Assembly: GCA_024278315.1 (NCBI GenBank)
Contig: JAJRTL010000076.1
Location: 1-63,060 of the forward strand
Direction: 5' to 3'
Source of the DNA: Planctomycetota bacterium
Lineage (GTDB): Bacteria; Planctomycetota; UBA1135; GCA-002748355
Length of the DNA: 63,060 nucleotides
Below are positions 14,688-54,211 of the stretch, piece by piece (positions within the stretch are counted from its first letter, which is position 1; the number at the start of each line of letters is the position of its first letter). The translations under genes were made by a program, and so were the position numbers. Below the pieces are notes generated by a model. That model saw only the letters and a program-made list of their open reading frames with translations, did not search any database and was not told the origin of the DNA.

Positions 14688-16337
14688 ATGACACTGAGCA
14701 CTCGACTTTTCTCTCTCTCCGGCACAGCGCTCCTGCTCTGCTGCTCTCTGGGCCTCTCGTCGCCCCAACTCCCTGCACAGCAAGGGGGTTACTCGCTCTT
14801 CGGCGCTGGCTGCGGCCCCACAACGGCCATCAGCGGCTCGACCAACAACATGACCTGCGCCAGCCCGGCCGGCGCGAGGGCCAACGGCAAGAACTACTAC
14901 GCCATCTCCTGTAGAGAGAAGGTCACCAAGACCCTCTCCAGCGTGACCTTCCGGATGCAGGGGACCCGACCCACGTCGATGCTTCTGGAGCTCTGGCTGG
15001 CGGACAAGACGGGTCGGCCCTCCAAGCGTCTGCGCACCGGACCCATGGTCGTCGGCCGCAACTACGGGAGCTACACGGGCCGATTCTCACCCTACAAGAT
15101 GGCAGCTGGCCAGAACTACGCGATCGTGATCTTCGGGGCCCGGGACATCGTGCTGCCCCAGTGCAAGACCGGCAACCTCGTCGCTGGCTACACCAGGGTC
15201 GTGCCCGGGACCTGGAAGGTCTCCGTCGCTCGCTGGGCCTACCGGGTGAACGCGGGCAGCGTGACCACAGTCCCTACGCTCCGCAACAGCGCGGTGCCCC
15301 TCATCGGTCGTACGATGTCGATCCAGCTCGCCAATGCCCGGCCCAACACGATCTCCTGGCTCAACTTCGGCGATTCCGCCACACGATGGGGACCCTTGTC
15401 GCTGCCACTGCACCTCTCTGCTTTCCAGGCATCGGGCTGATATCTGCGGACATCGCAGCTCTTCAGCGTGGTGCTTCCCACGAACTCCCTCGGTCGGTCT
15501 TCTCTCTCCATCCGCGTGCCCAACCACACCTCCCTCATAGGCAAGCGCTTCTACAACCAAGGCATGATCTATGACAAGGCAGCCAACAGCTTGGGATTCT
15601 CCTTCACCAATGCAGGCTCGGGCCTGGTCGGCAAGCCCTGCGGCAACAGTGCCTCCCGGACCGCCGGGGGCACACTGCGCTTTGCACTGCCACGCGTCAA
15701 CTTCTTCGGCTTCCCAGGACTCAGCATCGCTGGAAACTACACCGGGACCAAGAGGAAGATCTGCTGCACGTCCAACGGCCCACAGGCCTGCTACTACTCC
15801 GGCCGCGGCACGATCACAGGCCAGGTCGGACAGTTTTCGATTCCCGTCACCGCGCTCGGTAAGGTCGTCGACGACATCAATGCCAAGGTATGCACCTTGC
15901 TCAAGGCATCTTCGTCAGGCACGATCACCTGCAGCTCCCTGATGGGCATCAGTGTCAACGGCATCAAGGTCAACGCCGGCGTCAATCTTCTGCGCAACGA
16001 CTGCAATCGGACCAACAGCTACTCGTCCCGCGGATCCATCCAGTTTCCAGGCGGCGTCTTCGGTGGCGTCGACACGACAGCATCGGTCAAGCTTCCCATT
16101 ATCGGCAAGTTCGGATGGAAGTTCAAACTCGGCGTCACGGCGACGCCCGCGGGCTCCTGGGTCGTCTCCGCCAACCGCGCGTGGATGACCATCAAGATCA
16201 CCAGCGTGAGCGTCACAGGCACGACGACGATCCCCGTCCTCAACAAGAAGGTCAACTTCAACTTCAAGATCAACACTCCGAGCCTGACCTTCACGACTCC
16301 CGCCGTCAGAATGCCGACCATCACGATCGGCTGCTAA
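14688..16337 (+). pseudogene. secreted paralog-family protein A, interrupted by one in-frame TGA (15438-15440)
   Basis: ORFs 14688-15440 and 15468-16337 share a frame and are separated only by the TGA. The junction aligns without gaps to the intact paralog 50176-51309. N-terminal signal peptide MTLSTRLFSLSGTALLLCCSLGLSSPQLPAQQ. Confidence 0.7.
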
Positions 16338-16397
16338 CCCGAACGATTCATGACCTCGATGCGTCTGACGGCGTCTTTCGGTCCAGGACCGCGAACC
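16338..16397 (-). mobile_element. solo right-type terminus (60 bp) of the foldback element family
   Basis: CCCGAACGATTCATGACCTCGATGCGTCTGACGGCGTCTTTCGGTCCAGGACCGCGAACC equals the reverse complement of the right 60 bp of the full copies except one base. It starts at the base after the TAA stop (16335-16337). Confidence 0.75.
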
Positions 16398-16441
16398 ATG
16401 ACGGTATCGCGGTTACCACACCGGGAGTAGGTGGATCGTTC

Positions 16442-16527
16442 ACCACGGAAGAGCCGAAGGGCACGAAGGCTGGAACCCGAGAGCGATCTCGCTTCCTCTC
16501 CTTCGTGTCCTTCGTGCGCTTCGTGGT
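16442..16527. repeat. imperfect long hairpin built from CACGAAG-type motifs
   Basis: ACCACGGAAGAGCCGAAGGGCACGAAGG (16442-16469) faces CCTTCGTGTCCTTCGTGCGCTTCGTGGT (16500-16527). Same motif class as the hairpins at 39048-39084 and 62852-62921. Confidence 0.5.
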
Positions 16528-16708
16528 AACATCCTTCTTCCAATCCGATCGTTGGTCCCACATCGAGATCCTGGAGCAACTCCCTCTGTCCGCCAGCGTC
16601 CGTCTCCTTCCTTTCCCCATTCTCCTCTCTCGCCTGTTCGATGTCGATTCATCGCCAAACACGAACGAGACTCCATGATGTGCCTGCGTGCACATACGGG
16701 ACTCAAGG

Positions 16709-19249: not shown

Positions 19250-20082
19250 CCCCTGCCCTCCCACCGAGACAGGGGTGGCCCAGCAATTCCCCCCCGTCAA
19301 CGCGGTTTCCACGGGGGAAGCAGCTCGCCAGTCGGGGATATCGGGCGGGGCCTGCACGGGAAGGGTCACCAGGGGGACCGGGCCGGCTCCTGTACCGAGC
19401 TCGGCCGGGATGAGGACCGTGCCGAGGAGTTGCTGGAGTCGTTGGCGCAGGGCGGGAAGCAATGGCGTGGCTTGCGTGCGCAAGAGCGAGAGGGAGGCCA
19501 GGTGGGCCGTCAGCGTGTAGGGCGCGGCGGGGAGGTAGAGTCTTAGTTTTTCATCCCAGTCCAGATCGCGGTGAACATCCGAGTAGAAACCAGGCTGGCC
19601 TTCGAGGGTCACGCGGGGCACCTTCACGCCAGGTTTGGCGGGACCGAGCTGCACATCGACGACACGCGGATGGAGCTGGATGCGAAGCCTGTGAATCTGG
19701 TCGACCACGCGCACCGAGAGGAGCTTCGCCGCGATCATCCCGAGCCTGCCCAGATCCTGCGCCCCCACCGTCCCCACCCCTACCCCCAGGACGAGCCCCA
19801 ACCCCACGACTCCGCGGACCAGTCCCCACCCCCCTCCTATCTGTTTCATCTCATGCCTGGTGCAGGGGAGCCTAACGTAAGAACGCCATCGAGATGGCAT
19901 ATTCGGATCAGCCCACCATGTTTCGTCGCCTCCCTGACCTGCCGGATCACAGCGGGAGCTTCAGGGGCGGCTGTGCAATCCGCCTCGTCAGACCACGAAC
20001 ACGACCAAGAGGATCCCAGGGTCTCGAACGGCTTGGCGGCTTCCTGCCAGCGGGTTATGGTCGTGGGCCTTCTTGACCTCGG

Positions 20083-22320
20083 ATGCACCCTCGAATCCGT
20101 CAACCAGTGAACCACGCGCTCTATCTCGATCTCGAAGTGGCGCTCCCCGGTCCGGGTGATGGCACGCCGAGAGTGCCACCCATACCACCCTTGCGCGAGG
20201 TCGGGGCCGTGCTGGAAGGCCGAGAATTCCGACGCAAGGTCAGCAGCAACGCCAAGGCGGTCCTGCGCGAGTTAGAGCTCTTCGCGCAAGGAGCCGAGTG
20301 GGTCGTCGGTCACAACGTGCTGGGTCACGATGCACCGTTTCTGCGACAGATCGCACCAAACCTCGAGCTGCATCAGCTGCCCTGGGTTGACACCCTCTAT
20401 CTCTCTCCCCTGGCCTTTCCGGAAAATCCCTATCACAGGATCATCAAGGACTACAAGGTCAGAAAGGAGGAGAAGAACAACCCTGTAGCCGATGCAAAGC
20501 TTTCGCGGCGGATCCTCGAAGACGAGGAAGCTGCGTTCGCCAAGCGATTCGGAGCACGAGGGCAGAGCGAGATGCTCTCCCTGTTTCGGACCTGCTTTTC
20601 GAAAGAAGCGGCCTTCGTAGGTCTGACACATTGGTTGGGCGAGAAGGGAGCTCTGGCCTGGGGTGAGGCGCAACTCCGGGATTGGTGCCTGGATCGGTTC
20701 TGCGGCGGCGCAGGAGAGGCCAGCGTCTGCCGGGCAGGATTGCAGACGGTCCTGGACAGGGCGAGTAGCGGGGAGGGGCGAGCAGCGTTGGCGTACGCTT
20801 TCTCGTGGATCCAGATCGCAGGTGCCAATTCCGTGATCTCTCCGTGGGTGCGCCATCGCTTCCCGGAAGTACTTACGATCCTGCGTCGCCTACGGGATGA
20901 GGACTGCGGCTGCGAAGACTGTGCCTGGTGCCGAGTGGAGCACAACCCGGACGGACTGTTGGGACAATGGTTCGGCTTCGATTCCTATCGTCCCGAACCA
21001 CACAACGATGAAGGGAAGAGCCTCCAGCGGAGCATCGTCTGTCACAGCCTACGGGGAGGATCCCACTTGGCCATCTTGCCGACGGGCGGGGGCAAGTCCC
21101 TGTGCTTTCAACTTCCAGCCCTGGTGAGACATCGTCGCAGGGGCCAACTCACGGTGGTGATCTCACCGCTCCAGGCGCTCATGAAAGATCAAGTGGACAA
21201 CCTGAATGAGCGTGCGAAGCTCGGCAATGGCAGGTTGGCTGCAACCCTGAATGGTCTTCAGACTCCGCTCGAGCGAGGTGCGGCATTGCAGGACGTCGTG
21301 ATGGGCGATGCAGCCATGCTCTATCTCAGCCCCGAGCAGCTGCGCAATCGAAATGTGCAAAGGGTCTTGGCGCAGCGAGAGATCGGAGCCTGGGTCTTGG
21401 ACGAGGCACACTGCCTCTCGGGGTGGGGACATGACTTTCGACCCGACTATCTCTACGTAGCCAAGGTCATCCGCAAGCTATGCGGTCTGGCCAAGCCTGC
21501 GGCGGGGGTGGATCCCAAGGAAACGGATAGCCATCAGCTACCAGTTGTCACCTGCCTGACGGCGACGGCCAAACAGGAAGTCATCAAAGAGATCGTCCAG
21601 CACTTCCGAGAAGAGTTGGGTATCGAGCTCGCGGTCTTCGAAGGCGGCACGGATCGCGAGAACCTCGAGTTCACAGTGCGATCTGTCGGGAAGGGCGAGA
21701 AGTTCGCACTGGTCTGCCAATACCTGGAGGAGGCGATCTCACCCACTGCGGCCAGCTCCGGGTCGGCCATCATCTACCACTCGACACGGCAGTCGGCCGA
21801 TGATCTAGCCCTGCGCCTGGCAAGAGATCGCAACCTCCGCGTCCGCAGCTATCACGCTGGCCTGGATTCCGCAAAGCGAAAGGAGACCCAAATACTCTTC
21901 AGTACGAACCAACTCGATGTCGTCTGCGCGACGAACGCATTCGGGATGGGCGTAGACAAGGACAATGTGCGACTCGTGCTCCACTATGACATTCCGGGAT
22001 CCTTGGAGAACTACATCCAAGAAGCGGGCAGGGCTGGCCGCGACCAGCAAGGCGCTCTCTGTGTGTTGCTCTATAACGAGGAGGATCTGGATGCCCAGTT
22101 CCGTCTTGGTTCCTTCTCGAGACTCACGCGCAAAGACATCGCCGAGATCCTGCGTGCCATCCGCAAGCGAAGGTCCAGGCACGATCACCAAATCGTGATG
22201 ACTCCGGGTGAGATTCTGCGCGTGCCCGGAACACAAACGACATTCGGCACCGAGGACAGAGATGCCCCGACGCGAGTCAAGACGGCAGTGTCTTGGCTCG
22301 AGAGACAGGAGTTCCTGTAG
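20083..22320 (+). CDS. DEDDh 3-prime-5-prime exonuclease domain fused to a RecQ-family helicase core
   Basis: N-terminal exonuclease motifs: LDLE (Exo I), GHNVLGHDAPFL (Exo II), HRIIKD (H-x4-D, Exo III). Helicase motifs: PTGGGKS, DEAH (VLDEAHCLSGWGHDFRPDY), LTATA, QEAGRAGRD. Ends at TAG 22318-22320. Confidence 0.85.
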   Translation: MHPRIRQPVNHALYLDLEVALPGPGDGTPRVPPIPPLREVGAVLEGREFRRKVSSNAKAVLRELELFAQGAEWVVGHNVLGHDAPFLRQIAPNLELHQLPWVDTLYLSPLAFPENPYHRIIKDYKVRKEEKNNPVADAKLSRRILEDEEAAFAKRFGARGQSEMLSLFRTCFSKEAAFVGLTHWLGEKGALAWGEAQLRDWCLDRFCGGAGEASVCRAGLQTVLDRASSGEGRAALAYAFSWIQIAGANSVISPWVRHRFPEVLTILRRLRDEDCGCEDCAWCRVEHNPDGLLGQWFGFDSYRPEPHNDEGKSLQRSIVCHSLRGGSHLAILPTGGGKSLCFQLPALVRHRRRGQLTVVISPLQALMKDQVDNLNERAKLGNGRLAATLNGLQTPLERGAALQDVVMGDAAMLYLSPEQLRNRNVQRVLAQREIGAWVLDEAHCLSGWGHDFRPDYLYVAKVIRKLCGLAKPAAGVDPKETDSHQLPVVTCLTATAKQEVIKEIVQHFREELGIELAVFEGGTDRENLEFTVRSVGKGEKFALVCQYLEEAISPTAASSGSAIIYHSTRQSADDLALRLARDRNLRVRSYHAGLDSAKRKETQILFSTNQLDVVCATNAFGMGVDKDNVRLVLHYDIPGSLENYIQEAGRAGRDQQGALCVLLYNEEDLDAQFRLGSFSRLTRKDIAEILRAIRKRRSRHDHQIVMTPGEILRVPGTQTTFGTEDRDAPTRVKTAVSWLERQEFL

Positions 22321-22401
22321 AGAGATCTCAATATCGTTGGCGTCTTCAGTGGCAAGGCCCGGCTCAACTCCCTCGCAGACGCCGAGCGCCGCATCGCCGC
22401 G

Positions 22402-25401
22402 ATGGGGCTGCCATCCCTCAAGCGAGAGCTCTTCCATGCCCTCTTTGCGAGGATCTTCGCCTGCGACACGACAGACTCCATGAGCGTCGACGATCTTGCG
22501 GCACTACCGGAATACCGAATCTACCACGACGCCCGAGCCTCGAAGGCAGAGGCCCCGGAGAGCACAAGGCCCGTCGCTGAATCCTTGGAGATCCTCTCCC
22601 TACTGCGAGAGATGGTGGAAGTCGGCCTTCTAGATGAGTCCCAGAGCTACCGTGCCCTGGTACGATACAAGGTCACAAATCCATCCCAACGCATCCTGGA
22701 GGAAGCCATCGCGAGAGAGATATGGCTCTTGCAACTCCTCGCAGAGCTTCACCCGGATCTGCAGTGTGGTGAGAGGAGCGTGCTGTCGATCCGCAAGGTC
22801 AGCCAGGAGTTGCAGAACCGTGAGCAGTCGGTCGCGCCCGAGGAGATCTCCGCGATACTGATGAATCTCGCTCGTGAGGGGAGAGATCCGCATGGATCGG
22901 CGGGCTTGATCACAACCAAGGTTCTTTCACCGGATCGCCTCCTGCTGACACTCAAACGTGACTGGGCGGAGATTCGGGATCAGGTGACTGTCGCACGACG
23001 ATTGTCCACGGCCCTTCTCCGTGCCGTGATGACCCGCATCCCCGAAGGCACGCCACGTTCCAAGGAGTGCAGCGTCGACTTCACTGACAAGGACCTCCTT
23101 GAGGTACTGAGCGTACAACCCGGGCTCGAAGACTCCACAGAGTCACGCAGCAGGATGCTGGATACCTGCCTCCTCTATCTCCACGAACTGGGGGCCATGA
23201 GGCTCAAATCAGGCCTGGCCTTCTTCCGGCAGGCGATGACCATGACGCTTCGTCAGGATGCGAGACCTCAGTTCACGAAAGAGGATCATGCACCATTGGC
23301 GGATCACTACGGTCTCAAGCGCAGGCAGGTCCACATCATGGGTCGCTACGCAGAACTCATGGAGAACAACCCGGACGATGGTGCCTCCTTCGTCCGGGAG
23401 TACTTCCAATTGCCAGACCAGGAGTTCTTGACCCGTCACTTCCCCAGGGACAAGACCCTGCTCGAGAAGGGCGCTACTCGCGCCACGATTCGCAAGATCG
23501 TAGGCCCTCTGACGCAAGAGCAGAGGCGACTCGTCGAGGCACCCCTGGAGTCCTCCACATTGGCACTCGCAGGTCCCGGGTCGGGCAAGACGCGAGTCCT
23601 GGTGCATCGTGTGGCGTGGCTGCTGAGCGTGGAGCAGGTGCAAAGCCATGAGTTGCTGGTGCTTTGCTTCAACCGACGCAATGTCCTGGAGCTCCGGCGG
23701 CGACTCAAGCATCTGGTGGGACCCCGCGCACGGTTCGTTTCCATCTACACCTACCATGGGCTCGCCATGAGGCTCTTGGGCCGCAGCTTCCAGGATCTCG
23801 AGAGTGGTCAGGCGCCCAAGAATTTCGATGGACTACTGAAGGAGGCCTGCGCACGCCTCCACGCCCCTGACCTGGACGAGGAAGGGTCTCTGCGAGACCG
23901 CATCATCGCCGGTTTTCGCTACCTCCTCATCGATGAGTACCAGGATATCGACGGTGCACAGTACGACCTCGTGGCAGCTCTGGCAGGGCTCAGGGCGAAG
24001 GATGCCGATACCCGGCTGGCCGTGCTCGCTGTCGGCGATGACGACCAGGGCATCTATGACTGGCGAGGTGCCAATGTGGAGTATCTGCGGCGATTCGAGG
24101 AGGAGTACGACGCAAGACGACACTCCCTGCTGACGAATCATCGTTCCACACGCTCGATCGTCGATGGCTCGCAAGCCTTCATTGCTCAGAACGGCCATCG
24201 ACTGAAGCGTAGAGAGATTCTCAAGTCAGCTCAGAGCCGTTCGCCGACGCCAGGTCTCTATGACGCGCGTGACACATCGCCGGTCGCAGCAGAACGCCCG
24301 GTGCACATGCTCCAAGTAGAAGATGAGCAGGGCCAGGCCATCCAGACCCTGGCTGTCTTGGAGGACATGCGTCAGCACCTGACACTCGAAGGAGAGCCGC
24401 CTCCCTGGTCCTGTTTCGCCGTCTTGGCCCGAAGGTGGCAAGACCTCGAGCCGGTGCGATCACTTGCGGATGAGAAGAAGATACCGGTTGACTGGGCCAA
24501 GGACCGTGAGCTCGAGTATTCGCCAGGTCGTGTGCGAGAGGTGCTCCTCTTCATGGATCACCTCAAGTCGAGACGAAAGCAGGATGGGCACATCCCTCAT
24601 GCCGAGTTGGGGCAGATCCTCCGTGCGCTTGCTGGACCCAGGCACAAACGCCATTGGTGGCGCTACGTCCAGAATCTCCTCCAGGCATGGGCGGACGAGG
24701 CGGGTCGGGGCGAAGCAGATCTGGACGACCTCCAGAACTACCTGTGGGGACTCATCCACGAGGAACGTTACACTCCCCAAACCAGTGATGGTCTCTACCT
24801 CGGCACCGTGCACAGCGCCAAAGGTCTCGAGTTCCCCGGAGTCTGTGTTCTCGGCGGAGATTGGCAACCCAACCACAATGAGACCCTGGATCAGGTCCGC
24901 CGCCTCTACTACGTCGGGATGACACGCGCAGAATGTGAGCTGGCCCTCTTCGATCGCCGCGACCTTCCTCATGGCTTGATGAAGGACATCCACCTCCCCT
25001 GCCTGGAGCGCCGACGCATCCCAACCTCCCAGAGGCCCCTCCCCCGCATCCGTGAGCATCTGTCTCTAGGTCTCACGGACCTCTATCTCGACTTCGCTGG
25101 CCGCAAAACCCTATCCGACCCCATCCATCCAGCCCTGCTGGAGCTCCAGGAAGGAGACCCTCTCACGCTCCGACGCAAGGCTTCCTACCTCCTCCTCTTC
25201 GACAGCCAGGATCGCGCCGTCGCCTCCCTGAGCAAGAGAGCACGCGAACAGTGGCTCCCTCGATACACAGCGCCCATCCCCCTCACGGTGGAAGCTCTCA
25301 TCCTACGTAAGTCCACAGATGGCTCTTCAGCGTACCAACACCAGCTGAAAGTCCCCCAGTGGTGGGTGCCGATCTGCACGACGCGGAGTGTTGCACGGTA
25401 G
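22402..25401 (+). CDS. UvrD/Rep-family (SF1) helicase with a ~370-aa N-terminal extension
   Basis: Motifs AGPGSGKT, LLIDEYQD, TNHRSTRSIV, TVHSAKGLEFP, YVGMTRA. Same frame as the upstream RecQ ORF, with no stop between the TAG at 22320 and this ATG. Confidence 0.85.
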   Translation: MGLPSLKRELFHALFARIFACDTTDSMSVDDLAALPEYRIYHDARASKAEAPESTRPVAESLEILSLLREMVEVGLLDESQSYRALVRYKVTNPSQRILEEAIAREIWLLQLLAELHPDLQCGERSVLSIRKVSQELQNREQSVAPEEISAILMNLAREGRDPHGSAGLITTKVLSPDRLLLTLKRDWAEIRDQVTVARRLSTALLRAVMTRIPEGTPRSKECSVDFTDKDLLEVLSVQPGLEDSTESRSRMLDTCLLYLHELGAMRLKSGLAFFRQAMTMTLRQDARPQFTKEDHAPLADHYGLKRRQVHIMGRYAELMENNPDDGASFVREYFQLPDQEFLTRHFPRDKTLLEKGATRATIRKIVGPLTQEQRRLVEAPLESSTLALAGPGSGKTRVLVHRVAWLLSVEQVQSHELLVLCFNRRNVLELRRRLKHLVGPRARFVSIYTYHGLAMRLLGRSFQDLESGQAPKNFDGLLKEACARLHAPDLDEEGSLRDRIIAGFRYLLIDEYQDIDGAQYDLVAALAGLRAKDADTRLAVLAVGDDDQGIYDWRGANVEYLRRFEEEYDARRHSLLTNHRSTRSIVDGSQAFIAQNGHRLKRREILKSAQSRSPTPGLYDARDTSPVAAERPVHMLQVEDEQGQAIQTLAVLEDMRQHLTLEGEPPPWSCFAVLARRWQDLEPVRSLADEKKIPVDWAKDRELEYSPGRVREVLLFMDHLKSRRKQDGHIPHAELGQILRALAGPRHKRHWWRYVQNLLQAWADEAGRGEADLDDLQNYLWGLIHEERYTPQTSDGLYLGTVHSAKGLEFPGVCVLGGDWQPNHNETLDQVRRLYYVGMTRAECELALFDRRDLPHGLMKDIHLPCLERRRIPTSQRPLPRIREHLSLGLTDLYLDFAGRKTLSDPIHPALLELQEGDPLTLRRKASYLLLFDSQDRAVASLSKRAREQWLPRYTAPIPLTVEALILRKSTDGSSAYQHQLKVPQWWVPICTTRSVAR

Positions 25402-27242: not shown

Positions 27243-27462
27243 CCCGGACTATTCATGAGATCGTTGTGAGCAAATGCGAGATCGGCTGCGCCGATCTCGC
27301 ATTTGCGGTCTGACGAGCGCATTTCGAGTTCAGGACGGCTGCGCGAGATATGAGGCGACCCAAGAGGGTCGTCGAATCGAAGCCATGCCGAGCGAACCCA
27401 TAGGTTCGCGGTCCTGGACCGAAAGACGCCATCAGACGCATCGAGGTCATGAATCGTTCGGG
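27243..27462 (+). mobile_element. foldback MITE-like element, full copy 1 (220 bp)
   Basis: Left end CCCGGACTATTCATGAGATCGTTG; right end reverse complement CCCGAACGATTCATGACCTCGATG. Flanked by CTAA on both sides (27239-27242 and 27463-27466). Perfect internal 17-bp hairpin at 27270-27306. Confidence 0.85.
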
Positions 27463-29028: not shown

Positions 29029-29312
29029 GAACCCGACCGTCGACGCCAATCGCTCCCATGCGGTCACCGACGCAATGCTGGATGCATGATCTTGCATTCC
29101 ACAGTCGTCGTCACGGTGGCAATCTCCTCGATGCCATCGTGACGACGCATGTACAGCGCCCTCCTTCTGGATAGGGGTCACCTTCCGACTGTGCAGGGCG
29201 AGCAACCGGGCTATGATAGGCGCCAAGAATCGTGATGCTCGCGACTGTCCCCTGGCGGTCACGGACGACGCAACACGCCTCGCTACTCCTCCCCTCGCAT
29301 GGAGCCTCTCAG

Positions 29313-30476
29313 ATGTTCAAGGTCTACCTCCTCTCTACGCTCGCAGTCACTGCATCACTGGGCCTCTCCCAGGCCAGCACGACACTCCCCAAAGGGTTCG
29401 ACAAGACCCAGGGCACGTCCTATTTCTGGAGTGGATTCAGCGTCGCACCAACAACAAATCTCGACTACAAGTACTACACTTCGAGAAGCGTCTTCCTCTA
29501 CGACTCCTCGACATTCCCTTGGAATCCGAAGAGTGCCAAGGTCATCGACAAGATCAGCTTCCGGCGGTCGCATTCGAATCCCGCTGCGACAGCTGCGGCC
29601 CACAAGGCCAAGTGGGTCGTCATCATATCGACGAGCAACCAACCGGCTCATCGTCCGAACACGAAGTTCGATGACAACCATGGCAGCAACAAGAAAGTCG
29701 TGTTCGGAGCCAAGGGCCCCCAGGAGGTGAAGTTCCTGGCCACGCCACAACCCAAGGCCTTCACGACGGCACCTTTCGATGTGACGGTGGATATCACCAA
29801 CTTCCTGGTGCTTCCCAACACCAAGACCCTCGTCATCGAAATCCGCAGCTACAGCAGTGACGTTCGTTTCGGTGACTGGTATGTGGATTCGGCCATCTAC
29901 CCGGGCACCGGCTACAACGGTGGTGGCTACACGCTGTTCTACTCGACGCACTGTCTCGCCCCTCGGGCTTTCTACTCGGCCCGTGCCAGCTATCTCAATG
30001 GCCACCTCGCTCACATCTGGAGGACCGGTCGGAAAGGCGGCTTGCCGGTCATCGGCCTGGCAGGGACTCGAATGACGACAGGTATCAAGGTGCCCAACAC
30101 GACCTGCGAGTGGTACATCAACCCGATGATCACAGCGGTCACCCTGACAGCCAATGGTCCCGGGCACGCCACGAATCCTGGTCAAGGCACTGCATACCTG
30201 GACTGGGGCCCCATCCCACCTATCGCCTCCCTGGTCGGAATCAAGGTGGCTCACCAGGCTCTCATCATCGACCCCAGCGCCAACAAGCTAGGCATCGGCA
30301 TCACCCGTGGCGGTGAGACATCGATTGGAACCGCGTACGACAACAAGTACGTCAACGTGGGGGCCACCTACTCCTTCGGCCCACAGAACCACCGCTACAA
30401 CAAGTTCATGGACGCTGACAAGGAAACCTACGGACGCTACTTCTACCGTCGGGTCCCCATCATCAACATCCAGTAG
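29313..30476 (+). CDS. secreted paralog-family protein B
   Basis: Start at MFKVYLLSTLAVTASLGLSQAS (ATG 29313). It shares the family layout: an N-terminal LPKGF..T.G segment, a conserved Cys pair (STHCLAP ... NTTCEWY) and a C-terminal Q.LIIDPSANKLGI..T.GG module. Confidence 0.75.
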   Translation: MFKVYLLSTLAVTASLGLSQASTTLPKGFDKTQGTSYFWSGFSVAPTTNLDYKYYTSRSVFLYDSSTFPWNPKSAKVIDKISFRRSHSNPAATAAAHKAKWVVIISTSNQPAHRPNTKFDDNHGSNKKVVFGAKGPQEVKFLATPQPKAFTTAPFDVTVDITNFLVLPNTKTLVIEIRSYSSDVRFGDWYVDSAIYPGTGYNGGGYTLFYSTHCLAPRAFYSARASYLNGHLAHIWRTGRKGGLPVIGLAGTRMTTGIKVPNTTCEWYINPMITAVTLTANGPGHATNPGQGTAYLDWGPIPPIASLVGIKVAHQALIIDPSANKLGIGITRGGETSIGTAYDNKYVNVGATYSFGPQNHRYNKFMDADKETYGRYFYRRVPIINIQ

Positions 30477-30562: not shown

Positions 30563-30782
30563 CCCGGACTATTCATGAGATCGTTGTGAGCAAAATCGAG
30601 ATCGGCGCAGCCGAGCTCGATTTTGCGGTCTGACGAGCGCATTTCGAGTTCAGGGCGGCTGCGCGAGATATGAGGCGACCCAAGAGGGTCGTCGAATCGA
30701 AGCCATGCCGAGCGAACCGATAGGTTCGCGGTCCTGGACCGAAAGACGCCATCAGACGCATCGAGGTCATGAATCGTTCGGG
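30563..30782 (+). mobile_element. foldback MITE-like element, full copy 2 (220 bp)
   Basis: Same termini as copy 1. Flanks TTAG (left) and TTGG (right). The internal hairpin at 30590-30626 carries two compensatory base-pair swaps relative to copies 1 and 3. Confidence 0.85.
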
Positions 30783-40957: not shown

Positions 40958-41399
40958 GTAAGGAGAACGAAGCAGTGTAGGGCCCAGTAGCTCGGTCGCG
41001 GAGAGAAGTGATGGTCAAGCCGGCGGGAATCGCCAATGCCCCACGCGTGGAGCTTTCCACCAGGCCGCTGGCTCCTGCTGTTGGATCCGGGTCTCGTGGA
41101 CCAGGATCTCGGGCAGAGCCTCTTCACCACCTCCTGGCCCAAGGCCTCCCATCCCCAGTCCGGCCGCGCCGAGCATAAGATCCCAGTCGAATACCATTGC
41201 CGCGGCTGGATCCCCAGGCAGCTTCCTCATATCCATGATCACCTCCAAATCCATGATTGCAGCCAGGAGGAGGTCCGGAGCACGATTGGGTGCCCCTTCC
41301 CACATACGAAACGACATGGTATAGATACTATGCGACATACACAAGCACAAAAGTGTCAGTGAAGCAAAGGGATGGCCTGCTCGCCAAACGCTTGCCATA

Positions 41400-43967: not shown

Positions 43968-43981
43968 CTAACAGTGACGCA

Positions 43982-44728: not shown

Positions 44729-45377
44729 TTTCAACAGGAACCAGAATTCCGGGGATCGGGATCAGGGGAAACCTGTCCGCGACGCATTCCTTCGTGAACT
44801 CTTCGAAAAGACCCAACCCGACTTGGAGGCCAAAGCCAGCGAGTCCATGCCTCGGGATCTGGATGCACTCTTCGAGAAGCGCAGGTCTGCTTCCCATCAG
44901 GACAACACCATCAAGGACGATGGAGCTCCTGATGGCCATATGGCCAGCCTGTTGGAAGAACTCTTCTCACATGACCTTCAGCACGACTCCCAGATGGGCA
45001 GCCCCGCCCGACTCGATGCCGCCACCGCATCGGAGCTGGATCGTCGTGTTGCCGAGGGTATTCGAGAAGACAGGCCTCAGCCGATCCCCTTGGGTCGGAT
45101 GAGAGCACCACAGTGGTCCGGCTTGGCTGCAGCAGGCTTGATCGGCATGCTCTACCTCTGGGGTCAGGGCTATCTGAGCGGTGATGCAGACGGAGGAAGA
45201 CCCCTCTTCGTGCTCATGGACGTGGATCAGCCACTGAATACCAGCATGGATCCAGGTGCCATTTCTTTGGCGGCAGCGGGGGCCATCGATTTCGTCGAAG
45301 GCAAGACTCCGGGTAGGGCATCTCCCACTCAGACATCTCCCACTCGGGCGCAGCCCAAGAAGGGAGGCGAAGAGTGA
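44718..45377 (+). CDS. putative anti-sigma factor (single-pass membrane protein)
   Basis: ATG 44718 is preceded by CCAGGAGG and overlaps the sigma stop by 11 nt. One TM (WSGLAAAGLIGMLYLW). The call rests on position after the ECF sigma gene; there is no recognisable zinc-binding anti-sigma motif. Confidence 0.55.
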   Translation: MSPDFNRNQNSGDRDQGKPVRDAFLRELFEKTQPDLEAKASESMPRDLDALFEKRRSASHQDNTIKDDGAPDGHMASLLEELFSHDLQHDSQMGSPARLDAATASELDRRVAEGIREDRPQPIPLGRMRAPQWSGLAAAGLIGMLYLWGQGYLSGDADGGRPLFVLMDVDQPLNTSMDPGAISLAAAGAIDFVEGKTPGRASPTQTSPTRAQPKKGGEE

Positions 45378-46796: not shown

Positions 46797-48353
46797 ATGA
46801 AAGCCACAATCTCTATCTTGGCTGCGGGCCTTTGCCTCACTGCAGCAGTCTCTGCACAAACGAACTACTCGGTTGTGACCTCTTCGAGATTCGATGCGAC
46901 CTCCTTGGATGACAAGGGGGGCGAACTCTCGAAGATCCGTCCCTTCGGACTTTGGCAGTTCACTCCATCCAAAACAGGAACCGCTGCGTACCACGTGCTC
47001 AGCTCCAGCAACCTGTCAGCCCTCATGGGGGATCCCGATGGAGACGGAAAGCTTGCTGTCTTCAACGGCATGAAGGATGCGGGCACCTTTGCCATCAGCC
47101 CGTTCATCAAGGACAAGGACCGGAAGAAGAACGATCCGCGGCTCCTTTTCTGGACCGTGAAAGACTACGGAAAGCTCAACACGACGATCCATGTCTTCCG
47201 TAATGGCAAGAAGCACGTCGTTCGCCCTGGTGACTTCGTCCGGATCAATGCCAATGGCAATGCTGAGTTCTTCATCACACAAGACCTGATCATGAAGGGT
47301 GTGGGTGCCCAGAAGGGAGCCTTCATCAAGGGCGTCACAGCACTTTGTCAGAGCTCGACAGGAGCCCTGTTCTTTGCACCTGGACATGGGCGCAATGCTG
47401 CCAACACGGGCAGCGGTGGCGGCTTTTGGATCGGAAGCACCTTCATCTACGACGGAGGTGTCTGCACCATCCCGGCTTCCGCCATCAAGTACGACAACGC
47501 GGGCAATGTCGTGGACGTCAAGGGGTCCAGCGCCACGTTGCTCTTCAACGAGATCGGCAGTGGGCCTCTGTCCCAACTCAGCGCCAGGGACATGATCAAG
47601 AACTCCAACTTCAGGAGAACGGACGGACTCAACCAGAATACATCACTCTGGATGACCGGGGTCGAGATCGACCCCAACGGTGGCACCTTCAAGGATTGGG
47701 GTGGCAATGTGCAACCCAACCTGATCTTCACCTTTGAAAACTACAGGATCCAACTCGGGACGGCTTGGTTCCCCAGCTGGGCCGGCACGATCTTCTCGAC
47801 CCGGCCCACGAAGGGAGTCACAGCCATGGGAAGCCTGGCCGTCATCAATGGCGTGGAGATGGGCGTCACCACCAGCAAGGCGACGGGAGCCTGGACCGGC
47901 CTCAAGAACAGTCCCAAGCCTCCATGCCTGCGGGGCCTTGCGCTGCTGCAAGCCAACCACAAGCCCCTAGCTCCCAGCGGCCCCATCGGATCCACGACCA
48001 TCAATGATGGCGTCGTCACAATGGGTGTGGACCCCAGCATCGTCCTGGCCTTCCAGGACTCCAATCGCGTCGCTCCCGGGCTTCTCATGCTGGCCGCATC
48101 CGCCGGCAAGGGGCAGCGCTCGATCGGCCTGGATCTGGGAGTCATCCTGAGCGGCTACGCCGATGTGCATGTGCTGAGATTCGGCCCCAGCATCAATGTG
48201 GCCGGCGTCAGCGACATCAAGGGCCGTCTCACGGTCACCATACCGACACCCACGAACACGGCACTCAAGGGAGTCACGCTCAACTGGCAGATGCTCTTCG
48301 TGCGCGGCACGACCCTCAATATGACTCCCCCGGTCCTCACCGAGATCCGTTAG
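46797..48353 (+). CDS. secreted paralog-family protein C (divergent N-terminal domain, shared C-terminal module)
   Basis: Signal peptide MKATISILAAGLCLTAAVSAQ. The C-terminal RLTVTIPTPTNTALKGVTLNWQMLFV module is shared with the other family members. The TAG stop is followed at the next base by an element terminus. Confidence 0.75.
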   Translation: MKATISILAAGLCLTAAVSAQTNYSVVTSSRFDATSLDDKGGELSKIRPFGLWQFTPSKTGTAAYHVLSSSNLSALMGDPDGDGKLAVFNGMKDAGTFAISPFIKDKDRKKNDPRLLFWTVKDYGKLNTTIHVFRNGKKHVVRPGDFVRINANGNAEFFITQDLIMKGVGAQKGAFIKGVTALCQSSTGALFFAPGHGRNAANTGSGGGFWIGSTFIYDGGVCTIPASAIKYDNAGNVVDVKGSSATLLFNEIGSGPLSQLSARDMIKNSNFRRTDGLNQNTSLWMTGVEIDPNGGTFKDWGGNVQPNLIFTFENYRIQLGTAWFPSWAGTIFSTRPTKGVTAMGSLAVINGVEMGVTTSKATGAWTGLKNSPKPPCLRGLALLQANHKPLAPSGPIGSTTINDGVVTMGVDPSIVLAFQDSNRVAPGLLMLAASAGKGQRSIGLDLGVILSGYADVHVLRFGPSINVAGVSDIKGRLTVTIPTPTNTALKGVTLNWQMLFVRGTTLNMTPPVLTEIR

Positions 48354-48388: not shown

Positions 48389-48398
48389 ATCGAGCTTC

Positions 48399-48443
48399 AT
48401 GAAGAAACCCCCATCGGGACAGTCCCGGTGGGGGTTTCTTCAT
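48399..48443. terminator. 15-bp perfect hairpin between convergent paralog genes
   Basis: ATGAAGAAACCCCCA-(15 nt)-TGGGGGTTTCTTCAT. No U-tract. Lies between the 3-prime ends of 46797-48353 (plus) and 48986-50092 (minus). Confidence 0.5.
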
Positions 48444-48548
48444 AGCCTGAAAGAGAGAAGGATGGGAGAAGCTGTGGTGCCCCACACTCATCGCTCACCC
48501 CATCCCACGCTCATTGGCCTCATGGCTCACCGGGCTCATGCAGCATAA

Positions 48549-48767
48549 CCCGGATGATTCATGACCTCGTTGTGAGCAAATGCGAGATCGGCTGCGCCGA
48601 TCTCGCATTTGCGGTCTGACGAGCGCATTTCGAGTTCAGGACGGCTGCGCGAGATATGAGGCGACCCAAGAGGTCGTCGAATCGAAGCCATGCCGAGCGA
48701 ACCGATAGGTTCGCGGTCCTGGACCAAAAGACGCCGTCAGACGCATCGAGGTCATGAATCGTTCGGG
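48549..48767 (+). mobile_element. foldback MITE-like element, full copy 3 (219 bp)
   Basis: Termini CCCGGATGATTCATGACCTCGTTG and reverse complement CCCGAACGATTCATGACCTCGATG. Flanks ATAA / ATAG. One base shorter than copies 1 and 2 (CAAGAGGTCG versus CAAGAGGGTCG). Confidence 0.85.
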
Positions 48768-48775
48768 ATAGGAAG

Positions 48776-48868
48776 GTGCTGAACTCACTGCCCAGGACAT
48801 CTTGCGATGTCATCCACGCGCGTGCTGGCATGATCGAACCATCGTGAACTCACTTCTCTCTCACGGAG
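48776..48868 (+). repeat. second interspersed repeat (about 93 bp), copy X
   Basis: GTGCTGAACTCACTGCCCAGGACATCTTGCGATGTCATCCACGCGCGTGCTGGCATGATCGAACCATCGTGAACTCACTTCTCTCTCACGGAG matches the reverse complement of 62919-63009 with few mismatches. Confidence 0.75.
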
Positions 48869-48985
48869 CCACAGAGAAGACACGGAGTGCATCAAGCAGC
48901 CCCGCCATTCAAGGCGACCTTTGAGGCCGCCTCCGTGCCCCCTGTGAGAGAGGAGGAGTCCATCGAACGACAGGGCCCTCCAGGA

Positions 48986-50092
48986 TCACTTCTTCGTGAT
49001 CTGGGTCACGAGACCAACACCGCGATCGACGTGCCCAACAGAGGAGTTGGAGCTGTTGGACAACCTGTAGACCAGGGTGGAATCGAGACCAGTCTGGCCG
49101 AGGTTTCTACCCATCCGGATCTGCACCCCATTGGAAAGTGCGATTGGGAAGGCAGGATTGACGCGCTTGTCCAAGGCCAACCATTGGAAGTACATCGTCT
49201 TGTTCACCAAGGACTTCAAACCAGGAAGTAGCAAGTCCAACTGGGCCGAGCCTTGGCTGCGTGTCTGAGCCGTAAAGGTCATGTCGTAGCTGGCGTAGAG
49301 CGAGCATCATGTCAACCCGAGTCCAGAGAGACTCAGCGGGAGCTTGATCCCACTCCACGTGCTGTTGCTTGCCCCCAGGATGCCGACAACGGGGCTGAGA
49401 GAAGGACCCTCATAGAGCAGCAAGGAGAGAGGGGTTGAGCTTCCGGGATTGGTGGCGATCGCGTAGGCGCGATTCTTGCCCAAGGGACAGGCGGTACCAA
49501 ACGCCTTGGCATCGCCATGATCGATCTGGCTCCTCACGGCATCCACCCAGTAGCCATGGATGCGATACCGGGATTCGTAGACGTAATGATCGATCGCCAG
49601 GTTGGGGCCCGTGAAGGCAAAGGGGAAATCGAGGGGAAACTTGATGTCGAACCCAGGCAAGCCCGAGGCAGGATTCTTGAGAACCGGGAAGTTGACTCGC
49701 TTGGCGAGGAACACGGTCCGCAGCGTGTTCAGCTTCCCGGTTCCAGGCTTGAGAAACCTCTCCATCTTGGTCGACGTCGTGGGCCAGAAGTTTCCCATGC
49801 GCACGGTCCAGATGGGAGTTGTGGACCGCCTCAAGCTGAGTGTCGGGAAGGCCTTCCCGTCTCTCCGGTAGGCGATGGCTGTGATGGAGCTGTTGAAGGT
49901 CAGCTTGCCGGCCAACAGGACAGAGCCGATGTACTGGGTCATGCGGCAACGGTCGTAGCCGAAGGGTCGCAGCTCCAGGGTGTTGCCCTCCTTCGTTGTA
50001 TTCGCTGAAGGAATGACGAAGGAACTGCTCGTCTGGGAAGGAAGGGATGCGGCGAGGAGGCCAGCCGCTGCAAGAAGGCTCGTGCTGCGCAT
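48986..50092 (-). pseudogene. secreted paralog-family protein D, interrupted by one in-frame TGA (49307-49309)
   Basis: ORFs 49307-50092 and 48986-49282 share a frame. The junction GLGLT*CSLYASYDM aligns to SLGLKGCSLQASMDI of the adjacent intact paralog. Signal peptide MRSTSLLAAAGLLAASLPSQ. Confidence 0.7.
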
Positions 50093-50175
50093 TGTCGAAA
50101 GTCCTGGAGGCAGTGAAGGGAAGAGGGGAGCGCTGAGTATAGCGCAATTGCCCCCCTCACTGAGGGACGATCGGC

Positions 50176-51309
50176 CTACTTGAGGGTGAACTGGGTCACC
50201 AAGGCCATCCCTGGGTCCACAAATCCATACAACCCGTTCACCAGGTTGTTCAACCCAATGCCGTATACCAGGGCAGCATCCACGTTGCCGATATTACCGA
50301 TCGTCGCCCCGGAGCGGACCTCGACACCGTTGGAGAGGGTCAATGGGAACGCAGGACTGATCCTCTTGTCCAGATTGATCCACTGATTCCAGAAGGTCAC
50401 GTTGGCGTGCCTGGCGGTTGGAGGAAGTGGAATCGTGAGGTTGGCACGCCCACTCTCGTTGGTCGGCACGGGATAGAAGATATCCATGCTGGCCTGAAGC
50501 GAACAACCTTTGAGGCCCAAGGAGGACAGGTCCCAGGGGAGCTTCACAGCACCCCAACTCGTCTTGCTGACACCGATCACACAGAGAGCGGCGCTCTGCT
50601 TGGGACCATCGAATTCATAGAGCTCGATGGCTCCTCCACCGGGATTCGAGGACAGGGCATACGCGCGATTGAGACCGGGAGGGCAGGACGAGCCATAGGT
50701 CTTGGAGCTACCCTGATCGACCTTGCCACGATGGGCATCGATGAAGTAGCCGAAGATCTGATTGCGGCTCTCATAGACCGAATGGTCGATGACAAGATTC
50801 GTGCCGTTGTGCACGAAGGGGATGTCCAGAGGGAACTTGAGTGTAAAAGCGGGTAGGACCCCCTTGGTGTGCGTCAGGTTCGGGAATTTGACTCTCTTTG
50901 CCGTAAAGGCGGTCCGGACGATGGGACCTCGGCCACGCCCCCCGGACGGACGCGTATGGAACGGCAAGGGTTTCGATGCACTCGTCGTCATGTTGCCCAT
51001 GCGAATCGTCCACGTGGGGTCAGTAGTACCTCTCCGGGGAGGCCTGACCATGGTGAGCCCCACGAAGGTCGAGCCATCCCTTCGATACGCCAAGGCCGTG
51101 ATGGTATTCCCCTTGGCAATTGCCCCCTTGAGCATCGAGGCCCCAATGTGCTGCGCCACACGCACGCGGTTGTAGCTGAAGGGGCGCATCTCGAAGGCGT
51201 TGCCCTCCACCTTGGCGAGGCTTTGGGGGATCGTCACCGTCTTGGTTTGGGCCAGAAGCGCTGGGCAGAACACCAGCAGAGAGACAGCAGGAAGGATGGC
51301 AGGCTTCAT
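50176..51309 (-). CDS. secreted paralog-family protein E (intact reference member)
   Basis: Start at MKPAILPAVSLLVFCPALLAQ (ATG 51309). Collinear with paralog D over its whole length. Contains the GC motif and the C-terminal FWNQWINLD...LSNG module. Confidence 0.8.
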   Translation of the reverse strand: MKPAILPAVSLLVFCPALLAQTKTVTIPQSLAKVEGNAFEMRPFSYNRVRVAQHIGASMLKGAIAKGNTITALAYRRDGSTFVGLTMVRPPRRGTTDPTWTIRMGNMTTSASKPLPFHTRPSGGRGRGPIVRTAFTAKRVKFPNLTHTKGVLPAFTLKFPLDIPFVHNGTNLVIDHSVYESRNQIFGYFIDAHRGKVDQGSSKTYGSSCPPGLNRAYALSSNPGGGAIELYEFDGPKQSAALCVIGVSKTSWGAVKLPWDLSSLGLKGCSLQASMDIFYPVPTNESGRANLTIPLPPTARHANVTFWNQWINLDKRISPAFPLTLSNGVEVRSGATIGNIGNVDAALVYGIGLNNLVNGLYGFVDPGMALVTQFTLK

Positions 51310-51603
51310 GTGGAATATCCAGGGGGATGGCTGGGGGGGGCGAGCCAGGATCTGGCTCGGAATCGCCTCGTCAGGCTGTCCCTCCAGCCTATGCTCGATG
51401 GAAGAGAGATCAAGCACCCCAGAAGAGGCCCTGTCACAGGTCTGCAAGGACCGCTCTGGCTTGCCTGAAGGGCCCCTACAGAATAGGATCTTCCGCCCGA
51501 TTTCCCCGAATTCAGCTCCGCTGGATGGATGGAGACGTTCCGGTCGAACGATACGGCCAGATCACAAGGAGTCGGCCCCAAACGGACCGGTGGAGAAGCA
51601 GTG

Positions 51604-52515
51604 ATGGACCCCAAGAACAGCAACGTCCCAGGATTCACGTCAGAAGAGGTCAAGACCAAGATCGGCTTCTGTGAGCAACTCAAGGGGGGCGTCATCATGG
51701 ACGTCACCGATTTCAAACAGGCCAAGATCGCCGAGGATGCGGGTGCCTGTGCGGTCATGGCCCTGGAGAGGGTCCCTGCTGATATCCGGCGGGACGGTGG
51801 CGTCGCGAGGATGTCCAGTGTGCAGAAGATCCGTGAGATCCAGGAGGTCGTCTCGATCCCCGTCATGGCCAAGGTTCGCATCGGCCATTTCGTCGAAGCG
51901 CAGATGCTCCAGGCTCTCGAGGTGGATTGCATCGACGAGTCCGAGGTCCTCACCATGGCCGATGAGAGCAACCACGTGTGGAAGCGTGACTACCCGATCC
52001 CGTTCGTCTGTGGATGTCGCAACCTCGGCGAGGCCATGCGTCGCGTCCATGAGGGAGCCGCCATGATCCGAACGAAAGGAGAAGCTGGTACGGGGAACAT
52101 CGTCGAGGCTGTGCGCCATATGCGCGCACTCATGAGCGGGATCCAGGGCTTGTCACGGCTCTCGCCTTCCGAACTCCAAGAGAAAGGCCGAGAGTTCCGC
52201 GTGCCCTATGAACTGGTCGAGTGGGTGGCTCGCGAAGGCCGCCTGCCTGTCCCCAATTTCTCCGCGGGGGGCATTGCCACGCCAGCCGATGCAGCCTTGA
52301 TGATGCAACTCGGTGCCGAGGCCGTCTTCGTCGGCTCGGGCATCTTCAAGTCGGAAGACCCTGAAGCCAGGGCACGCGCCATGGTCAAGGCAGTCACGCA
52401 CTACCAGGATGCAGCAACTCTCGTAGAAATCTCCATGTCCCTGGGTGAGGCAATGGAGGGGCTCGAAATGGAGAAGATCCCCGAAGAAGACCGCCTGGCC
52501 AATCGAGGCATCTGA
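51604..52515 (+). CDS. pdxS: pyridoxal 5-prime-phosphate synthase lyase subunit
   Basis: [24 protein letters not shown] and [16 protein letters not shown] motifs. Start MDPKNSN (ATG 51604). Confidence 0.95.
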
Positions 52516-52520
52516 TTTCG

Positions 52521-53126
52521 ATGACCGAACCTGTGCGCATCGGTCTCCTTGCCATCCAAGGAGACTACCCATCGCATGAGCGTGCATTGTCGGGTAGGGA
52601 CCTTCGGCATGTTCGGGTGTCTCGACCCGAACACCTCGAGGGGTTGGCAGGTGTCATCCTTCCTGGGGGGGAGAGTTCAGTGATGCTCAAACTCCTGACG
52701 GAGGAGGGCCTCCTGGAGCCGCTGCGTTCCTGTATCCAATCAGGTATCCCGACATTGGCCACCTGCGCGGGAATGATCCTGATGGCACAGCATGTCCAAT
52801 CGCCTGCTCAAGCTAGCCTGGGACTCCTGGACATCTCTGTAGTCCGCAACGGCTATGGCCCCCAGATCCACTCAGGAGTCCACCGCGTCGAAGGAGCCCT
52901 GGGCTTCCCCGACTGTGAAGGTGTCTTTATCCGGGCTCCACTGGTTCAAGAGCCAGGCCCGGAGATCGAGATCCTCGGCACCTACCAAGGGGACCCTGTC
53001 CTGATCCGCCATGGTCGAATTGTCGCAGCGAGCTTCCACCCTGAACTGAGTGAAAACCACCCGGTCATGGAGCTGTTCTTGCACACAGTCGACCCGAACA
53101 TCGCAAGCGACCCCAGGCAATCCTGA
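52521..53126 (+). CDS. pdxT: pyridoxal 5-prime-phosphate synthase glutaminase subunit
   Basis: IGLLAIQGDY, LPGGESS, ATCAGMILM (catalytic Cys) and SFHPEL. Starts 5 nt after pdxS. Confidence 0.9.
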   Translation: MTEPVRIGLLAIQGDYPSHERALSGRDLRHVRVSRPEHLEGLAGVILPGGESSVMLKLLTEEGLLEPLRSCIQSGIPTLATCAGMILMAQHVQSPAQASLGLLDISVVRNGYGPQIHSGVHRVEGALGFPDCEGVFIRAPLVQEPGPEIEILGTYQGDPVLIRHGRIVAASFHPELSENHPVMELFLHTVDPNIASDPRQS

Positions 53127-53215
53127 CAAACGCGCAATCCTCCGCCTGGGGAAGTGATCCCTTCCCTGAGCGCGGATAGAATGTTCGGATCACGAATCAG
53201 CTTGCGAGGACAATC

Positions 53216-54211
53216 ATGAGTCACAGAGTTCTCTTCTATGGGCTTGGGCCCATCGGCCTGAGGGCGGTCCAATTGGCACAGGGCCGCGAGGATCTGGAAA
53301 TCGTTGGTGCCGTCGATATCGATCCGGCCAAAGTTGGAAAGGACCTTGGCGATCTCCTGGAGACCAACGCGCAACTTGGGATCCAGATCAGCGATGACGC
53401 CATGACCTGCATCCAGGAGACCAGGCCGGATCTCATCGTACACTGCACATCCTCTTGGTTGCCCAAGGTGGAGACCCAGCTCCTCGCCTGCCTTTAAGCA
53501 GGTGTCAACATCGTCTCCTCGACCGAGGAACTGCTTTGGCCTTGGCTCTCGAATCCAGAGATTGCAGAGAGGCTCGACAAGGCAGCTCTAGCCTCGGGTG
53601 CCGCGATCCTCGGAACCGGTGTCAACCCGGGATTCCTCATGGACAGCCTCCCTCTCTTTGCCAGCTCGGTTTGCTGGGAAGTCAGAAAGGTTGAATGTCG
53701 ACGGGCTCTCGATGCTGGACAACGCCGTATCCCCTTCCAGAACAAGGTCGGAGTCGGCCTTGCACTGGATGAGTTCGAGAGCAAGGCGGCTACGGGTGCC
53801 TTCGGGCACGTGGGGCTCGCCGAATCGATTGCCATGCTCGGTGCTGGTCTTGGATTCGAGATCGACACGATCGATCAGGGAGTAGAACCCATCATTGCCA
53901 AGACGACTGTGACCGTGGGCGAACAGGTCGTGCCAGAGGGCCGCGTCCTGGGTCTGCGCAACACGGGCACGGGTTCGAGCAAGGGTGAGACCTTGATCAG
54001 CATGGATTTCCAGGCCTACTTCGGTTGCGAAAACCCCATGGATGAGATGATCCTGGATTCGGATCCGCCCATGCATCTCCAGATCCCAGGAGGCACGCAT
54101 GGCGATCTGGCGACAGCAGCCATGTTGATCAACGCAGGCGTACGCTTGCTCGAGACTGGAGCAGGCCTCAAGACCATGCTTCAAGTTCCTCTTCCCCGCG
54201 TAGGCCCCTGA
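53216..54211 (+). pseudogene. DapB-like NAD(P)-dependent amine dehydrogenase/reductase (COG3804 type), interrupted by one in-frame TAA (53495-53497)
   Basis: ORFs 53216-53497 and 53639-54211 share a frame. Read-through gives ...VETQLLACL*AGVNIVSSTEELLWPW...AAILGTGVNPGFLMDSLPL..., a continuous Rossmann N-domain (VLFYGLGPIGL) plus DapB-like C-domain. Confidence 0.75.

Follow-up and report, generated by a model that had tools for sequence, protein, structure and literature searches.

What puts a single in-frame stop codon into each of four genes on one contig of a planctomycete genome? The stretch of DNA analysed here, called the window throughout, is the whole 63,060-bp contig JAJRTL010000076.1 (C446 in our numbering) of Planctomycetota bacterium assembly GCA_024278315.1, a metagenome-assembled genome (MAG) of 5.16 Mb in 518 contigs (median 7 kb) with a completeness of 85% and a G+C content of 60%. 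A TGA interrupts each of two members of a secreted protein family (paralogs A and D), a TAG interrupts a RecQ-family/UvrD-family fusion helicase (RecQ–UvrD), and a TAA interrupts a DapB-like gene that resembles 2,4-diaminopentanoate dehydrogenase (Ord-like). The reading favoured here, at a probability of roughly 55%, is that each of the four stops arose by plain nonsense substitution, in genes unrelated to one another, that none of them is recoded, and that the lineage in question most likely lacks mutY and fpg. The phenomenon is of a known kind; its setting is new.

The original prediction had taken the four loci for single genes with one in-frame stop each, and this was borne out: all four stops are where they had been placed (Table 1), and the homologues are uninterrupted. 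The frames downstream of the stops are homologous to the matching parts of those uninterrupted homologues and are therefore the far sides of interruptions, not neighbouring genes. In the helicase gene the TAG separates 745 amino acids (aa) carrying the Pfam domains DEAD and Helicase_C from 1026 open codons carrying UvrD-helicase and UvrD_C. This 'pair' had rightly been counted as one broken locus, a single fused gene of about 1,750 aa that is widespread in databases. Its junction region matches more than 7,000 proteins in a large protein collection, and almost all of the 120 matches listed have both halves; most are 1,700-1,800 aa long, most cover the whole junction region, and many are named 'RecQ family ATP-dependent DNA helicase'. 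Identity to the two nearest of the listed matches is 81% and 76%. When six fused homologues are aligned with the gene, the TAG falls in an invariant Glu column, and GAG to TAG is one G-to-T change. No counterpart of the gene was found in 40 related genomes, which marks it as an accessory gene.

The DapB-like gene has 93 aa before the TAA and 237 open codons after it, and scores 247 bits against NCBIfam NF040740, under the cut-off of 400. It is uninterrupted in 11/11 relatives that possess it. The stop lies at about position 76 of 124 in the DapB_N profile, in a column that holds E or G in same-family genomes and a GAG Glu codon in the two metagenomic loci most similar to it, at 80% and 86% identity. 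A metagenome scan for contigs of the same species yielded relatives at 80-87% identity, and a look-up of identical proteins, which excluded near-identical genomes, gave no match.

Paralogs A and D are members of a family whose proteins have a signal peptide and, at the C-terminal end, a conserved domain that bears the motif given in Table 1; no Pfam or NCBIfam model of the family was found. The family has about 54 members in this genome and 27-59 per same-family genome, often in tandem. In paralog A the TGA ends the first of two abutting open reading frames (ORFs; 14688-15440 and 15441-16337), and 298 open codons follow it. The column holds Cys in 14/16 paralog alignments and in the nearest homologue, an uninterrupted 566-aa frame of a same-family genome that is 35% identical over residues 19-546. 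The ORFs of paralog D are 50092-49310 and 49306-48986, with 106 open codons past the stop (98 from the first ATG); the interrupted column is Gly in 14/15 paralog alignments, and identity to the intact paralog C is 44-45% along the whole length, across the stop. In annotation, the four loci, and many others in the MAG, should each be entered as one gene with an internal stop instead of two short genes.

Table 1. Interrupted genes of the window, their in-frame stops and one intact paralog
Feature	Position	Strand	Remarks
Paralog A	14688..16337	+	Secreted 'LPL.L..LG.pGC.L' family, extra C-terminal domain; 549 aa read through
In-frame TGA of paralog A	15438..15440	+	Invariant Cys column
RecQ-family/UvrD-family fusion helicase	20083..25401	+	About 1,772 aa, split by TAG; Pfam, fused homologues
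In-frame TAG of RecQ–UvrD	22318..22320	+	Replaces invariant Glu, WLERxxF-E-RN
Paralog D	48986..50092	-	Tandem neighbour of paralog C; 368 aa read through
In-frame TGA of paralog D	49307..49309	-	Nearly invariant Gly column, directly before Cys
Paralog C	50176..51312	-	Intact reference member, 378 aa, ...LGLKGCSLQAS...
2,4-Diaminopentanoate dehydrogenase-like gene	53216..54211	+	331 aa read through; Pfam DapB_N + DAP_DH_C
In-frame TAA of DapB-like gene	53495..53497	+	Within DapB_N, replaces Glu

Three of the four window stops are one G:C-to-T:A step away from the lost residue (Glu to TAG, Glu to TAA and Gly GGA to TGA). For the DapB-like gene the step is GAA to TAA, and the GAG of its relatives implies a further third-position change. 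The Gly of paralog D fits if the lost codon was GGA, and the Cys of paralog A fits only if it was TGC, TGT to TGA being a T-to-A change. Genome-wide, ancestral residues were taken from paralog columns and PDB alignments, and most stops stand for Glu or Asp/Glu, Ser and Gly. A G:C-to-T:A change fits 16 of the 24 classifiable stops, against an expectation of 41% at equal rates (P=0.01) or 27% with threefold transitions (P=5e-5).

The second line of evidence is a missing repair gene. No match to mutY was found in the 5.16-Mb, 85% complete assembly, the best match being a 229-aa Nth, and a candidate 'mutY' match with two TGAs proved to be this intact 229-aa endonuclease III. A strong mutY match is present in 23/24 relatives, including all 10 same-family genomes. 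In three relatives (G005, G007 and G009) mutY stands directly after tatA and is followed by kdsB, a histidine phosphatase gene and a metallophosphoesterase gene. Contig C327 of the present assembly carries, in order, birA, an S8 protease gene, tatA (ending at about 14309), a remnant of a miniature inverted-repeat transposable element (MITE) and an unrelated secreted-protein gene that runs to the contig end at 14894; mutY is not at this TatA-adjacent site. The histidine phosphatase and metallophosphoesterase neighbours are nowhere in the assembly, and kdsB has only a weak match (31% identical) on another contig. The gene fpg is likewise absent from the assembly. The stretch C327:13701-14894, with tatA followed by the MITE remnant and the unrelated gene, looks like a deletion or rearrangement junction.

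Loss of MutY raises G:C-to-T:A transversions. If the lineage has lost this adenine glycosylase and has no Fpg, 8-oxoguanine would go unrepaired and give rise to G:C-to-T:A changes, which would strike the abundant GAG/GAA, GGA, TGC, TCG and TAC codons and turn them into stops without frameshifts. The window stops are part of a genome-wide load of such lesions. The stops, the residues they replaced, the lack of a selenocysteine signal at paralogs A and D (see below), the genome-wide load and the lack of mutY at its conserved locus are observed; we infer that mutY loss is the cause, that the cells themselves carry the lesions, as opposed to consensus errors, and that the broken genes no longer function. 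A documented parallel is the Elizabethkingia anophelis outbreak strain from Wisconsin, whose mutY is disrupted by ICEEa1 and in which 87% of substitutions, and 45/49 nonsense substitutions, are G/C-to-T/A (PMC5458099). Common to both are the lost mutY, the G:C-to-T:A excess, and GAA-to-TAA and GAG-to-TAG changes scattered over many genes that are intact in other respects, while frameshifts do not rise to match. The two differ in that the outbreak spectrum was polarised on an isolate tree, whereas the present one rests on homologue columns, 16/24 stops and one MAG without reads, and in that mutY is visibly interrupted there but absent here, where fpg is missing as well.

Tentatively, the case may be carried further: an uncultured, free-living planctomycete population might be a natural hypermutator null for 8-oxoguanine (GO) repair, with mutY deleted at the MITE-marked junction, fpg absent, and something like a hundred very recent G:C-to-T:A nonsense alleles at consensus frequency, those in the genes for a NiFe hydrogenase small subunit and a phosphotransferase system (PTS) enzyme I-like protein among them. 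Should mutY loss be true, an environmental GO-repair-deficient mutator would have been caught accumulating nonsense alleles, the documented case being a clinical outbreak strain (PMC5458099); should the hypermutator proposal hold in full, the MAG would show, at one moment, how a mutator drives gene loss in an environmental population.

Several observations weigh against attributing the stops to mutY loss. Eight of the 24 classifiable stops (in Trp, Gln, Lys and Tyr columns) are not G:C-to-T:A, which leaves the share well under the roughly 90% of a fresh mutY mutator, so older pseudogenes must be mixed in. Several ancestral residues rest on Asp/Glu columns of distant homologues, and counting four of four window stops as G:C-to-T:A gives P=0.03 under equal rates. 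Among singleton differences in 81 MITE copies, C>A accounts for 14/129, with no enrichment, a comparison that is without power at about 4 extra events expected. The stops of paralogs A and D are adjacent within one motif, a coincidence of about 3-4% given some 80 at-risk codons per gene. The presence of fpg is patchy among relatives (7/14), and in an 85% complete MAG mutY and its three neighbour genes could sit on an unassembled piece after a rearrangement. A G-to-T bias is also the signature of 8-oxoguanine artefacts.

The genome-wide load of lesions was surveyed with a six-frame dicodon model of coding potential, with re-orientation by expectation-maximisation; a single-codon model was rejected, as it scored the antisense frame as coding. 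The survey gave 438 junctions at which coding-like sequence lies on both sides of a stop in the same frame, mostly ordinary neighbouring genes and thus not taken as a pseudogene count. Stops followed by at least 20 coding-like codons without ATG, GTG or TTG number 57 (26 TAG, 25 TGA and 6 TAA). When ten junctions from the top of the list were run through Pfam, a domain spanned the stop in nine, of which eight are nonsense (a Ski2-like helicase, an S8 protease, DUF5077, an amidohydrolase, a ClpB-like ATPase, the NiFe hydrogenase small subunit, the PTS enzyme I-like protein and an MtaB-like methylthiotransferase) and one is a deiodinase-like gene with selenocysteine (Sec). By a second yardstick, with MITE pseudo-ORFs masked, paralog alignments run across 59 in-frame stops, of which at least five are Sec, and 29 junctions (about 23 distinct) are frameshift-like. 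Multi-lesion loci lie on contigs C394, C374, C473, C426 and C34. The validated in-frame stops number at least 40-60 genome-wide, and since the 20-codon filter would let through about a third of random interruptions, a rough extrapolation gives some 100-170 nonsense-broken genes. Two of the loci may be described further. At C230:1824 the gene for a membrane-bound NiFe hydrogenase small subunit has a single TAG where HoxK has Tyr (332 bits over 199 aa). On C34 one ATP-binding cassette (ABC) transporter ATPase gene is hit by a TAG both at 12308 and, about 250 nt away, at 12559; the first of these falls on a Ser column within Walker A (GE*GCGKS).

In the window itself no frameshift was found with the coding-potential ORF map and a Pfam check of suspicious same-strand overlaps, and two candidates (41015-41142 and 55224-55350) were discarded for lack of Pfam support. 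The claim that frameshifts and multiple lesions are missing thus stands for the window and fails for the genome, with its frameshift-like junctions and several multi-lesion loci. The original prediction had also proposed a genome-wide count of single-stop interruptions against frameshift pseudogenes, with an ordinary mixed spectrum speaking against anything exotic; nonsense, frameshift and multi-lesion loci are indeed mixed, and the tally comes near to such a spectrum. Four stops among about 47 window genes are a modest local excess over a rough genome-wide 2.5-4% of genes (Poisson P 0.03-0.12).

A rival reading is an ordinary pseudogene background, in which the stops are real but belong to the 1-5% of pseudogenes usually carried by free-living bacteria that have large, dispensable gene families, no mutator is involved, and the lack of mutY is due to an assembly gap or has no bearing. 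We consider this unlikely, though the mixed genome-wide spectrum with some multi-lesion pseudogenes favours it, as do the two of four window stops that fall in a 54-copy family, the 41% of nonsense paths that are G:C-to-T:A anyway in this codon usage, and the ordinary-looking singleton spectrum of the MITE copies. The loci also resemble ordinary bacterial pseudogenes in having a single premature stop in a gene intact in relatives and in affecting a large dispensable family and accessory genes. They depart from them in a density that appears high, in the favouring of one substitution class and in the lack of other decay in most of the genes. Further points against a mere background are the share of G:C-to-T:A stops, significant against the equal-rate and more so against the transition-biased baseline, the absence of mutY from a conserved place, and the intactness of the Ord-like gene in every relative having it. 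In addition, stops in the family of paralogs A and D are found, among the matches listed, in 0 of about 120 members from six related genomes versus 2 of about 30 here.

About as improbable as this background is an artefact of assembly or consensus in a low-coverage, fragmented MAG, in which oxidative G-to-T damage of the library or minority alleles produced the stops, or many of them, and the cells carry sense codons. The fragmented state of the assembly and the G-to-T bias already mentioned are compatible with it, and the broken genes are highly conserved up to and past the stop, as in the NiFe hydrogenase small subunit with its 332 bits to HoxK. Random errors would not cluster, however, and contigs C394, C374 and C34 carry two or three lesions; none of the named validated cases is in an obviously essential single-copy gene. 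The implied substitution error rate is about 0.04%, and errors at such a rate are rarely fixed by short-read assemblers. An artefact would also leave the absence of mutY at the syntenic locus unexplained. If the stops were consensus errors after all, the MAG would be a warning against pseudogene and recoding surveys on fragmented assemblies.

Nonsense substitution is also to be set against recoding, and first against Sec, for the organism has the complete machinery: a tRNA-Sec(UCA) on contig C363 (78 bits), selA (457 bits), selB (341 bits) and selD (357 bits), the last of which, on contig C366, itself has an in-frame TGA. UGA therefore has two meanings in this genome, and the TGAs of paralogs A and D needed a specific test. 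Nine reference Sec genes were chosen by a TGA that recurs in paralogs or stands at a known Sec position: four TlpA-like with W-U-G-P-C, two with UxxC, and one each deiodinase-like (Pfam T4_deiodinase spans its TGA), formate-dehydrogenase-like and glutathione S-transferase (GST)-like. Hairpin free energy was rejected as a test for the selenocysteine insertion sequence (SECIS), since it did not separate true SECIS elements from controls at this G+C content, and a signature of shape and loop was used instead, namely a stem of at least 6 bp with a 4-6-nt GU-containing loop (GGUC, GGUCU, CGUGU) lying 18-47 nt past the UGA. This SECIS-like signature occurs in 8/9 reference Sec genes and at 3.1% of 5,000 random coding positions, in 22/201 in-frame TGA junctions and in 7/237 TAG/TAA junctions.

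No such signature follows the TGA of paralog A or D, and allowing a 5-bp stem does not change this. The sequence after each TGA folds no better than its shuffled versions (z-scores of about 0), and an Rfam search gave no match. That Sec is inserted at the TGA of paralog A, making it a new and exported member of a selenoprotein family, is accordingly very improbable, and for paralog D even more so. In its favour, as in bacterial selenoprotein genes, where SelB reads UGA together with a SECIS, the host has tRNA-Sec, SelA, SelB and SelD, many selenoprotein genes, some of them for exported proteins, and roughly 16-22 in-frame TGAs with a SECIS, and the paralog A TGA falls exactly on an invariant Cys with a long conserved open frame after it. 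Unlike those genes, A and D lack the hairpin, and their homologues lack the TGA: no stop interrupts any of the 150 best matches to the family in 7 genomes other than A and D themselves, and the nearest homologue of A, itself only 35% identical, has Cys in that column. Paralog D has lost a Gly, not a Cys. The family Cys looks structural, there being a second conserved Cys upstream, rather than a redox CxxC/UxxC, and the lesions are of the same kind as the TAG and TAA beside them. On these grounds Sec was rejected for both paralogs; low-level reading of the paralog A UGA as Sec or Cys is a smaller additional possibility beside the hypermutator proposal. Loci of the A/D type are therefore not to be called selenoproteins, although the organism makes many, and the stem, loop and distance given above provide a simple rule, specific to this genome, for telling the two kinds of in-frame TGA apart.

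The selenoproteome seen along the way is large: a SECIS-like hairpin follows about 22 in-frame TGAs, where chance would give about 6. Selenoprotein loci are C127:5448, C355:4115, C471:9378, C477:2098, C290:8985, C485:4202, C447:13705, C116:3199, C27:2375 and selD on C366; they include a deiodinase-like selenoprotein with EF-hands, an FdhA-like protein and a GST-like protein with V-U-P-F.

Functional read-through by near-cognate tRNAs, or expression of split genes by reinitiation, would leave the genes working and is about as improbable as Sec at paralog A. The downstream frames are intact, a start codon occurs 8-47 codons past each of the four stops, and UGA is the leakiest stop codon. Yet the stops fall inside single folded domains (DapB_N and the C-terminal domain of the A/D family), three different stop codons would require three mechanisms, the split is not conserved in any relative examined, and the suppressor tRNAs suggested by the original prediction did not turn up, tRNA-Sec being the only one among the 43 tRNAs found. 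Of the explanations listed at the outset, recent nonsense mutation in a mutator lineage is thus the one to be favoured, and read-through, suppression and split genes gained no support.

Reassignment of stop codons, as in genetic codes 4 and 25 or with pyrrolysine at UAG, would account for in-frame stops inside conserved frames but is unlikely, as had been argued from the start: all three stops are involved, they replace Glu, Glu, Gly and Cys in the window and stand for E, S, Q, K, Y, W, G and C genome-wide, TGA and TAG are the usual terminators (terminator-like stops are 2711 TGA, 1400 TAG and 302 TAA), and no pyrrolysine tRNA or suppressor with a CUA or UUA anticodon is among the tRNAs found. 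TGA was correctly held to be a genuine stop, for the GTGA stop/start overlaps at 45374-45377 and 54856-54859 agree with the ORF table and TGA ends about 61% of coding-looking frames.

Some further features of the window bear on its genes. Loci of the A/D family lie at 14688-16337, 29232-30476, 46797-48353 and 48986-51312. The N-terminal 300 aa or so of RecQ–UvrD (window positions 20083-21000) are conserved family-wide (LDLET...GHNLLGHDL...FPENPYHRL) and presumably resemble a DnaQ-like exonuclease domain; a match to DpdF from NCBIfam is below threshold (198 bits against a cut-off of 550). A MITE-like element of about 220 bp occurs in the window at 27243-27462, 30563-30782 and 48549-48767, and genome-wide in 263 BLAST hits and 109 near-full copies, with a median identity of 93%. 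Its translated ends (AHNDLMNRPG and PERFMTSMRL) give rise to many spurious ORFs and false 'in-frame stop' calls.

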